A DNA stretch of 64,000 bases from Sminthopsis crassicaudata (Eukaryota). Under the pieces are notes generated by a model. It saw only the letters and a list, made by a program, of their open reading frames with translations, was not told the DNA's origin and made no database searches. The DNA lies in the NCBI RefSeq assembly GCF_048593235.1, contig NC_133621.1, positions 286,895,238-286,959,237 of the forward strand. The letters are read 5' to 3'. A program made the translations under genes and the position numbers. Below are positions 12,556 through 26,067 of this stretch, one piece after another (the first letter of the stretch is position 1; each line of letters opens with the position of its first letter).

Positions 12556-12880
12556 CTATCTGATAAGCTCTGAAAGCCGCTCCTTGCTTCCTCCCTCCCC
12601 CTGCTCTAGAGGATGATGTTTAATAGCTTAGAATACCTTTGGCTCTTTTGTACTTGGCAGGAACCCCACACGGGGTGTCCAAGAACAATATCTGGTTGCT
12701 TCCAAACGGTTAATGCAGTTACCTAGCAGCCTTTCCAAATTCACTGTCCCCAGCACAGTGACCACAAGCCTCAAGGGACAGATGGCCTCTTTCATGCATC
12801 TACCCTGAGTGAATCAACTTCATTATCTGCAACTAAATACAAGAAGAAGACCAGTGGCAGTCTGAATAAGCGGCACTTAC

Positions 12881-12961
12881 TTATGTCCATTTAAAGCTGC
12901 ATGGTGCAAAGCAGTGTAACCCGAACTGTCTGTGCAGTTCACATTGGGACCTCGCCAGATG
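12881..12961 (-). CDS. ANKS1B: ANKS1B coding exon 2 ((S)[26 protein letters not shown](K))
   Basis: Ankyrin motif [13 protein letters not shown]. Acceptor tttattcgcag|C and consensus donor AA|GTAAGT (12880-12875). 81 nt, phase 2-2; AA+G joined to exon 3 gives Lys. Confidence 0.96.
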
Positions 12962-23910: not shown

Positions 23911-24694
23911 TATAATTTAGTAAATAACTCTTTCCAAAAGTCAATTATAGTCTGAATGGATGGTCATGTGAAACCTATTCCCTCAGGATAACACTTAGAA
24001 ATCTGAGGAGAGTAATTAGTCACCCTATGAGAATTCAGTTCACCCATTCCAATAGGAATCACTCCTCATGTCTATCTTACAAGATTCAGCCTAAATACAT
24101 AAAGTGTGGATTGAGGTAATTCTAAATGGCACAGCTCTCTCCAGATTAACTTTGAGGAGTCAATAAGTCTTGAGTCCATCCTAGTCAAAAGAAGCTAGAT
24201 TGGTTCCTATACAGAAGAGTATGTTCTACACTAATCACTTTTTCCTTCTGTATGTTCAATTCTATTAAAAAAAAAAAAAAAAAAGACCAGTAGGATAGAA
24301 TTATCCTTCCCCTTCTCCAATATAAATAGCGCTTTCATCTGTAAAACTCTAAGATCCTAAAAGCAATAGGCAGTTATAGAAGCATAATGTCCAGACAAAG
24401 AATGTTAAGTACCATGCCTAAGTGTGAAGGGGCAGGTCAGTTCTCCTGAAAGTCCCCATAGCTGTGAATCATAACATACTTGAAGGAGTTGCAAATCAGC
24501 TTTTACTGATGCAGATGTTGCTTGTGAATTAGGAATGAAATAAATTGGAGGCAAGAAGGAAGAGGAGAGAGGTCAGAGAATGCAACTGCCTCTCAGTCTC
24601 CTTATATCATTATTATCCTCTCACATAAAGGGATCTACTCTGCTGGTCAGAATTAGATCCTCAGTAGCCACCAGTAGGTTGCTCCCATAATAAA

Positions 24695-24712
24695 TGGCAC
24701 CCAACATGGGGC
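24695..24712 (+). promoter_or_regulatory. Primer-binding site for tRNA-Lys1,2
   Basis: tggcacccaacatggggc versus canonical TGGCGCCCAACGTGGGGC; both mismatches are CpG>CpA decay; 2 nt after the 5' LTR end. Confidence 0.88.
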
Positions 24713-25130
24713 ACAAGAAACAAAGAAGCAGCAGCACTGGAGAGCTGTACATGAGTAGGATGCTCCCAGGAAGAGTTCCTTTGGTAACTAGTGAGGAAGG
24801 AAAGGGAGAAGAAACCTGGTAAGACTTTTTCAGTCCAGCTAATTAAAATGGGCCAACACATCAAAGGGCCAAGCCAGGAGACTGATGAGGAACATATGAA
24901 ACATGCCTACTCTGACTACAAGCCTACTTCTCCGTTTGTCAGAAAGTTTGCCTCCATGACATCTCACAAGATTTAATACCTGTTATAGTGACTCACCCTA
25001 CAACCATCCAGAGGAATAGGACTGAAAAGACTTTGATAGTGCAGCATATGGACTTAGATAACAGCTGCTTAACAATATTGGACAAACTTACTGACCATGC
25101 TGTTGGGGGGAAATATAATCATGTTCCCAT

Positions 25131-25149
25131 AAAACAAAAAACAGGGAAT
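25131..25149 (+). promoter_or_regulatory. Polypurine tract of the mini-ERV
   Basis: aaaacaaaaaacagggaat immediately precedes the TG of the 3' LTR. Confidence 0.75.
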
Positions 25150-26067
25150 TGTTAAGGACCAGACCTAAGTGTGAAAGGGCAGGTCAGTTCTCTGGAAAGC
25201 CCCCACAGCTGTGAATCATAATATACTTGAAGGAATTGCAAATGAGCCTTTACTGATGCAGATGTTGCTTATGAATTGGAAATGAAATAAATTGGAGGGA
25301 AGAGGAAAGAGGTGAGAGGTCAGAGAATGCAACTGCCTCTCAGTCTCCTTGTATCTATCATCCTCTCACATGAAGAATTCTACTCTGCTGGTCAGAATTA
25401 GACCCCTAGTAGCCACTAGTAGGTGGCTCTCCTAACAAAACAAGTTGATGAATCTAGATCTTCTTTAGAAATTAACAGAGGCAGAGTGAAAAATTAGGAG
25501 TCTAGGAGAGTGAGACACAGCTTCCTTCTTCTAAGGAGAAGTTCCCAGAATTTGAGAGATTGGGTTTAATCCCAGGTAATTTTGTTTCCAGGTCCAGTAT
25601 ATCTTAATAAAACAAAGAAGTATAGGTGGAAAAATGAAGAAACTTTGAGAAGCTGGAAAAGTAAACAGAGAAGGTTTAAACCTGAGACCCCCCCCCTACT
25701 AAAGTGCTCCTCTGAGATCCTAACATGATAGGAACAGGACCCTGTGTTTTTAAAAGTTCTGCCAAAAGGTCAGTTCTGATAACTCTTCCCAAGTTGCTTC
25801 AAGTAGCAACCAGAGAAAGGACTCTACATCTGTTACCAGAGAACAAATTAGTTCAGGTTAGCCTAAAGGTTCTTCTTGAAAATGGAAATTAAAATGATAT
25901 GGTTCCTGCCATTAAGGAGCTTAAAAATATTCTATTGGAGACACATACAAATGTTGACCAGTTAACTAAAGTTATGAATTTAGGACCCACAGCATCTCTC
26001 AGACTACCTATTAAGTTACACTGTGATCATAATTTTCATTAGTAGAGACAATGCCAATACTGATATA

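Follow-up and report, generated by a model that had tools for sequence, protein, structure and literature searches.

The stretch of Sminthopsis crassicaudata DNA analysed here (64,000 nucleotides, hereafter the window) carries at 24403..25437, on the + strand, a compact element of 1035 bp (contig C5 of genome G000, at ~286.92 Mb) made of two LTRs around a 457-bp internal part whose polypurine tract (PPT) abuts the 3' LTR at 25150 (Table 1). The LTRs differ by 33 substitutions (24 transitions and 9 transversions) and one 2-bp gap (p = 0.115, K2P = 0.126), and the two copies of the target-site duplication (TSD), AAAGAA and AAACAA, agree at five of six bases. These values were measured anew and agree with the LTR lengths, substitution and indel counts, internal length, primer-binding site (PBS), PPT and TSD given in the initial annotation. 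The PBS type rests on a reference motif that we take to be that of tRNA-Lys1,2.

Table 1. Parts of the element and its borders, in window coordinates.
Feature	Position	Strand	Basis or remark
Left target-site duplication AAAGAA	24397..24402	.	Sequence; family TSD length 6
5' LTR, 290 bp, TG start	24403..24692	+	LTR pair alignment
AATAAA in 5' LTR	24539-24544	+	Sequence
Primer-binding site, tRNA-Lys1,2 type	24695..24712	+	2 CpG-type changes from reference motif
Leader, putative packaging/dimerisation region	24713..24847	+	~70-75% identity to leaders of gag-bearing relatives
gag matrix start, first ~17 codons, MGQ	24848..24898	+	Homology to Gag_p10-like frame start in L165
Capsid N-terminal domain piece, in frame with matrix start	24899..24944	+	Match to Gag_p24 region of long relatives
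Junction J2 and a 14-nt remnant of an insertion that is longer in an earlier subfamily	24945..24958	+	Comparison with L206
5-6 short collinear pieces of the region just past the integrase end	24959..25129	+	By position the start of a putative env
Junction J7, polypurine tract and terminal part of the last frame in the long relatives	25130..25149	+	Alignment to long relatives
3' LTR, 288 bp, TG...CA	25150..25437	+	LTR pair alignment
Right target-site duplication AAACAA	25438..25443	.	Sequence

The ATG at 24848 opens a frame of 42 codons that stops at 24974-24976, and J1, the first of the internal junctions described below, is placed within about 24886-24904. A Pfam scan of the internal frames of the window element gave no domain match, in agreement with the initial annotation, in which no pol had been recognised. 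Folding the RNA from U5 through the leader to the gag start of this decayed copy gave z = -0.32, hence no support for a structure, and the window holds no second copy of the element. At 12880-12961 of the window, on the - strand, lies an exon for one ankyrin repeat with AG..GT ends, presumably of an ANKS1-like gene; if that gene spans 24-25 kb of the window, the element would be intronic and antisense to it.

The genome (3.24 Gb in 8 contigs, low CpG) was searched with the 457-bp internal sequence, as the initial annotation had advised, and yielded 1021 first-look candidates; all of the 40 that were scored cover the probe nearly end to end, at 78-83% identity, the self match aside. So that copies would not be chosen by internal similarity, we also used patterns spanning the junctions. 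The pattern made of LTR end and PBS, which ignores the internal part, gave 62 matches versus none with its reversed control, and examination of all 62 revealed 57 with an internal part like that of the window element (hereafter the mini), one ultra-short element, three that end after the PBS, and one long, gag-bearing element. The pattern made of PPT and LTR start, biased toward the short LTR, gave 224 matches, and 27 of the 30 loci listed have mini internal sequence upstream. The loci examined hold 93 distinct internal-bearing copies, with ~1-kb copies on six contigs. A strict two-LTR filter is passed by 26 of the 93 (most of the rest show indels or lack an LTR), 25 of them with K < 0.3; the TSD and age figures below rest on these strict two-LTR copies, with the other 67 standing outside. 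Their internal part measures 382-502 bp (median 465), and their total length has a median of 1045 bp.

Among the 24 non-tandem, cleanly bounded copies, 7 have a perfect 6-bp TSD and 12 agree at 5/6 or better, all 12 duplications being different, while cross-paired controls at this length give 0% perfect and 0.7% at 5/6 or better. Perfect duplications of 4, 5 and 7 bp are found in 1, 2 and 0 of the same copies, versus 7 for 6 bp. The mini is thus a non-coding, multi-copy family of separate insertions; the ~1-kb copies share their junctions and carry different 6-bp TSDs, which bears out the initial proposal of a family as opposed to a one-off deletion. Correcting for detection gives ~670 copies from the PPT junction (19/57) and ~215 from the PBS junction (15/52), two estimates that are threefold apart, the latter being tuned to one LTR-end variant; as a rough estimate, the family numbers several hundred copies. 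From an LTR-only pattern (156 matches), 30 LTRs were followed up, of which 16 proved solo and the other 14 belong to elements with an internal part, giving ~2 solos per element. The gag ATG context is kept in 47 of 90 copies, with frames from that ATG of 2 to 93 codons; being so short and so variable among copies, these frames give no support to a selected “MGQ” peptide.

Could the copies have spread by segmental duplication, or by the L1 machinery, and not by retroviral proteins? Some are indeed doubled together with their flanks (L067/L068, L135-L138, and a cluster at C3:393-395 Mb). However, most lie in unrelated flanking DNA and have TG...CA ends, both LTRs in full and differing 6-bp TSDs, and the internal-sequence tree of the 39 copies with a clear PBS, mostly unresolved, is star-like with end branches of ~0.1, which fits a burst of separate insertions; we regard this explanation as very unlikely.

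The single gag-bearing match to the LTR-end and PBS pattern (L154/L165) led to the source lineage. It has a 523-bp LTR and the same ends, U5, PBS and leader as the mini, and its gag frame start aligns with the mini's MGQ start; two short pieces of its gag resemble Gag_p10 weakly (E 0.002 and 0.013, below the cut-off). Through this relative, the MGQ start, called gag-like in the initial annotation, can be recognised as the N-terminus of a betaretroviral matrix gene. A probe from its gag region finds 22 loci (22 of 22 candidates scored), 8 of them in one duplicated cluster; 16 of the 22 were retrieved, 17 long relatives were inspected in all, and 5 loci were scanned with Pfam. These 5 hold remnants of Gag_p24, zf-CCHC_5, RVP, RVT_1, RVT_thumb, RNase H, rve and IN_DBD_C. 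The best PDB matches of the capsid are capsid p27 and HERV-K Gag, and those of the integrase are 3jca/7usf, which we take to be MMTV integrase. Past the integrase, some long relatives have a basic cleavage site, a hydrophobic peptide and a membrane-anchor-like stretch, presumably remains of a type-B env, while Pfam gave no env match on these env-like stretches. The source lineage consists of degraded betaretrovirus-like ERVs (ERV2) with ~520-bp LTRs, which share LTR (att) ends, R/U5, leader and PPT with the mini and are ~70-80% identical to it in the leader. Each of the 17 long relatives inspected carries deletions and stops: the search for an autonomous partner by LTR/PBS match found the cognate lineage, with no intact member, the would-be helper, among the 17. 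Five of them share one matrix deletion, which implies that defective forms had already been amplified before the mini.

A genome search with Gag_p10 returned, as its 30 best loci, other ERV2 lineages whose similarity to the mini in LTR and leader amounts to one 21-nt match, and a pro-RT probe added only two further cognate loci, the remaining matches being 72-74% identical RTs of other lineages. L155, considered as a 5-kb partner, was rejected since its integrase piece, flanked by two unrelated remnants, runs in the opposite direction. L167 and about 20 Gag_p10 matches of equal score form a young ERV2 lineage with identical 452-bp LTRs, unrelated to the LTR of the mini, and with long gag/pro/pol frames and no long env frame; this lineage may be the published MEBrv 3. 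One further very short derivative of the mini's parent lineage, L225 (C6:237.12 Mb), exists in one copy, with the capsid start joined to late env pieces by other junctions and an LTR shortened in a different way.

We mapped the internal part by using 29 single copies as separate queries against the long relatives. Internal positions 1-~212 correspond to the PBS, leader and matrix start, ~204-256 to the capsid start, 266-315, 324-400 and 402-419 to sequence past the integrase end, and 439-457 to the PPT; all pieces keep the order that they have in the long relatives. Gap-tolerant alignment resolves eight internal junctions with gaps of about 17 nt to about 4 kb, the latter at J2 in comparison with L206, and several of them sit at direct repeats of 4-6 nt in the long relatives. 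Each junction was then scored in the 92 other copies wherever both sides could be aligned. The window-type join was found in 86/86 copies for J1, 61/61 for J3, 59/59 for J4, 57/57 for J5, 76/76 for J5b, 77/77 for J6 and 81/81 for J7, while J2 is as in the window in 69 of 87, the other 18 having ~28 more bases, including more capsid sequence.

These counts bear directly on the simplest explanation, namely that the middle of a full-length provirus was deleted after integration, at the window locus alone. Old ERVs often have internal deletions, and further deletions confined to one copy do occur in the family (L076, L082, L149); however, each of the eight junctions is found again in 57-86 other copies, whose TSDs differ, and this explanation is refuted. 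The initial annotation was thus right about the anatomy of the element, but its single internal deletion gives way to a mosaic with at least eight junctions, in which the LTR is a deletion product as well. A reverse-transcribed, multiply spliced viral RNA could also have produced several clean gaps, and J1 is in frame in 23 of the 32 copies scored. Against splicing, among the alignments listed no gap has GT..AG ends in the long relatives, short direct repeats lie at several gaps, several gaps are only 17-53 nt long, and U3 is deleted too; it is very improbable that the mini arose in this way.

About a dozen deletions, shared among the copies, led from a retrovirus to the mini, and the surviving copies suggest their order. 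A longer U3 start, like that of the long LTR, is present in 5 of the 19 long-J2 copies listed; as some copies with the longer J2 also have more U3, the series is polarised, and the suggested path runs from the long ERV to a long-J2 mini with longer U3, then to a long-J2 mini with short U3, and finally to the window type. In the tree of U5 and leader, 25 minis form one side of a branch with 100/99 support, opposite 7 long elements.

The LTR underwent a similar shortening. The 290-bp LTR of the mini consists of collinear pieces of the 523-bp long LTR, with at least three deletions in U3 relative to the ~520-bp LTRs of the long relatives. Among the pieces lost is an AT-rich stretch that contains a TATA-like motif and lies directly upstream of AATAAA; it is present in 4 of the 7 long LTRs scored and in 0 of 34 mini LTRs. 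As for the primer site, a strict call on the 93 copies gave 30 of Lys1,2 type, 22 of Lys3 type and 41 ambiguous ones, based on reference motifs that we assume to represent these two tRNAs. Both types are interspersed on the internal tree, with 8 changes (11.7 when shuffled), at least 2 of which are forced by supported branches.

Taken together, the mini is very probably a non-coding 1-kb family which arose from a betaretrovirus-like ERV by shared, likely stepwise, deletions and was likely copied in trans by a protein-coding relative. We infer mobilisation in trans from the combination of missing genes, integrase-type ends and TSDs. The deletions would have arisen during reverse transcription, by template slips at the short repeats (4-6 nt at several junctions), and each shorter form would have been packaged and re-amplified, shorter forms presumably outcompeting longer ones until the family kept little beyond cis signals, i.e., att ends, R, U5, PBS, leader with gag start, and PPT. 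An RNA of roughly 0.75-0.8 kb from R to R, as predicted from the position of AATAAA, would be packaged by the Gag of a helper, primed by tRNA-Lys1,2 or tRNA-Lys3 (probably switched more than once), and copied and inserted by the helper's reverse transcriptase and integrase. Source copies were probably transcribed from a TATA-less start or by host read-through. Host transcription running through a source copy would relieve it of the need for its own promoter, since the U3 of a new copy is taken from the 3' end; this could explain survival without the TATA-like segment.

With all 17 long relatives inspected being defective, the helper is putative. It may be an unsampled or exogenous virus, given that the leader of the long relatives is only ~70-80% identical. 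A variant of the above explanation, which we consider rather unlikely though well ahead of splicing or duplication, keeps everything but attributes the helper function to another co-resident ERV2 lineage or to an exogenous betaretrovirus instead of the cognate family. The few cognate long copies (the 22 gag-probe matches, 8 of them in the duplicated cluster), all defective where inspected, the abundance in this genome of other ERV2 lineages whose primer sites are of Lys3 and Lys1,2 type, and the presence of both PBS types among the minis are in its favour. On the other hand, the 30 other Gag_p10-positive loci have no LTR or leader similarity to the mini beyond the 21-nt match, whereas the cognate family shares the att ends, R/U5, leader and PPT and overlaps with the mini in age.

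The K2P divergence between the two LTRs of a mini ranges from 0.08 to 0.21 (n=25), with a median of 0.16 (0.15 without CpG); the LTR pairs of long relatives give 0.125, 0.20, 0.20 (over 62 bp only) and 0.23 (n=4), so that both ranges overlap. For a neutral rate of 2-3 x 10^-9 substitutions per site and year, the window copy would be roughly 21-32 Myr old and the median copy roughly 27-40 Myr; the initial annotation, too, had read the LTR divergence as that of an old insertion. The burst is old, roughly 20-40 Myr at that rate, and over, and the family is dead. In four other organisms, contigs span the element over its full length and at high depth but hardly cover its flanks, and the family is thus common to them. 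In one of these (organism D), a flank contig has 33 differences in about 397 places, less than the 11.5% of the LTR pair, from which the window insertion is predicted to be older than that split. Among the pieces listed from the four organisms, no contig bridges a flank-LTR junction. Sequencing runs presumed to be RNA contain the stretch as well.

A 6-bp TSD is typical of class II ERVs, and this feature is joined here by a tRNA-Lys PBS and by beta-type gag/pol in the cognate long elements. ETn elements are several kb long; MaLR elements are about twice as long as the mini and contain an ORF. ETn is young and its mobilisation in trans has been demonstrated experimentally, whereas the mini is old, 1.0-1.1 kb long, made nearly entirely of deletion remnants and equipped with a shortened LTR.

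Comparisons with published systems refer to the sections of the cited papers that were covered. The mouse ETn/MusD pair is a non-coding class II ERV derivative with a coding relative that mobilises it (PMC6466679); as in that pair, the coding relative of the mini shares its LTR and internal sequence, and traces of retroviral homology are left (PMC6466679). In cattle, the D-type of ERVK[2-1-LTR] is a non-autonomous form of ~6.8 kb, more numerous than its competent partner (85% vs 15%); it has a swapped-in central segment and gag and env pieces beside its LTRs (PMC10924933). The mini is likewise a non-autonomous morph of the ERVK class but differs in its ~0.46-kb internal part, its lack of a large foreign segment and its traceable deletion series. 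VL30 and MaLR, abundant non-autonomous LTR elements of mammals belonging to class I (~5.5 kb) and class III, respectively (PMC6466679), are not ERV2-derived, unlike the mini, which would work like the VL30/MLV pair (PMC6466679).

In layout, the mini is like the TRIMs, defined as <4 kb and typically 0.5-1 kb (PMC4558846) or as <1000 bp (PMC10886601). At 1035 bp with a family median of 1045 bp, it is under the 4-kb limit and ~4% above the 1000-bp one. It shares with them two LTRs, a PBS, a PPT, no coding capacity, TSDs and occasional tandem units (L071, L072). In the portions covered, TRIM hosts are plants, fungi, hymenopterans, cestodes, bivalves, nemerteans and fishes, the partners are Copia or Gypsy elements and the TSDs are of 4-5 bp (PMC4558846, PMC10886601); the word “mammal” is absent from PMC10886601. 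The mini has a mammalian host, a betaretrovirus-like ERV parent and a 6-bp TSD; it has the layout and roughly the size of a TRIM and would work like one, with another origin.

Among marsupial ERVs, the beta-like MEBrv 1-5 of Australian species are gene-containing, with 7.3-9.5 kb and LTRs of 281-469 nt, and MEBrv 4, an old clade of type B, has broken ORFs (PMC11334065) and is possibly the home of our long relatives; the covered text of that survey has no 1-kb form. The Tasmanian devil TE paper deals, in its covered part, with a different ERV1 having 4-bp TSDs (PMC4408412). No such family is named in the covered parts of PMC3403934, PMC5381603 and bioRxiv 10.1101/2025.10.06.679394, and the supplements searched (PMC11334065, PMC5711953 and PMC4408412) contain none of three family motifs. 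We found no description of a ~1-kb marsupial ERV2 derivative in the literature, a comparison to which Repbase and Dfam are external; about as probably as not, one of them lists the family under a bare name.

Non-autonomous ERVs are known, and those described in the covered sections measure 5.5-6.8 kb (PMC6466679, PMC10924933); what would be new is a TRIM-sized, betaretrovirus-like derivative in a mammal with a traceable reduction series. If copied by the enzymes of a full-sized relative, the mini would be among the smallest retrovirus-derived mobile elements seen in a mammal. A betaretrovirus-like ERV was likely cut to TRIM size, with the parent lineage and the intermediates surviving in one genome, and what about a dozen deletions left in place (att ends, R/U5, PBS, the 135-nt leader, ~50 nt of gag, and PPT) would be a natural map of minimal betaretroviral cis signals. 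A broader claim is tentative, and we hold it to be somewhat less probable than its opposite: that this is an undescribed TRIM-class element from a true retrovirus in a mammal, a natural minimal betaretroviral vector of self-inactivating type with an RNA of <0.8 kb, which shed its TATA box, switched between two lysine tRNA primers and outnumbered its parent lineage more than tenfold, and whose intermediates map the indispensable cis sequences. For bovine ERVK, a “parasite-of-parasite” takeover has been proposed (PMC10924933), of which the mini could represent an end point. Surveys of ERVs based on genes miss elements of this type; hundreds of old two-LTR insertions, common to at least four other sequenced organisms, would provide datable presence/absence markers.

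Several variant copies were met in the course of this work. A second mini subfamily (L105-L134, e.g., L115, L121 and L126; branch 100/99) is ~73% identical inside, with an internal part of ~380-440 bp and a different LTR end. One end is inverted in four elements, both ends being U5 in L106 (C1:106.79 Mb) and L109 (C1:157.13 Mb) and U3 in L094 (C4:126.68 Mb) and L091 (C3:437.12 Mb); judged by eye, their TSDs agree at 6/6, 6/6, 5/6 and 5/6 bases, respectively, and they resemble products of aberrant reverse transcription that became integrated. In the mirror forms L120 and L131, no TSD was found. Tandem int-LTR-int-LTR units with a shared LTR, as in plant TRIM arrays, occur in L071 (C3:637.50 Mb) and L072 (C5:243.37 Mb), and a PPT stands in front of the 5' LTR in L023 and L115. 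In L086/L159 (C2:338.5 Mb), L143 (C3:402.6 Mb) and L146 (C4:292.4 Mb), the 5' half of the mini is joined to one common other repeat at internal position ~291, and in the two that were checked the next LTR is not preceded by a PPT; this composite was itself multiplied. Finally, L082 (C1:431.09 Mb), a single example, consists of two LTRs around ~90 bases comprising the PBS, an A-rich run and the PPT.
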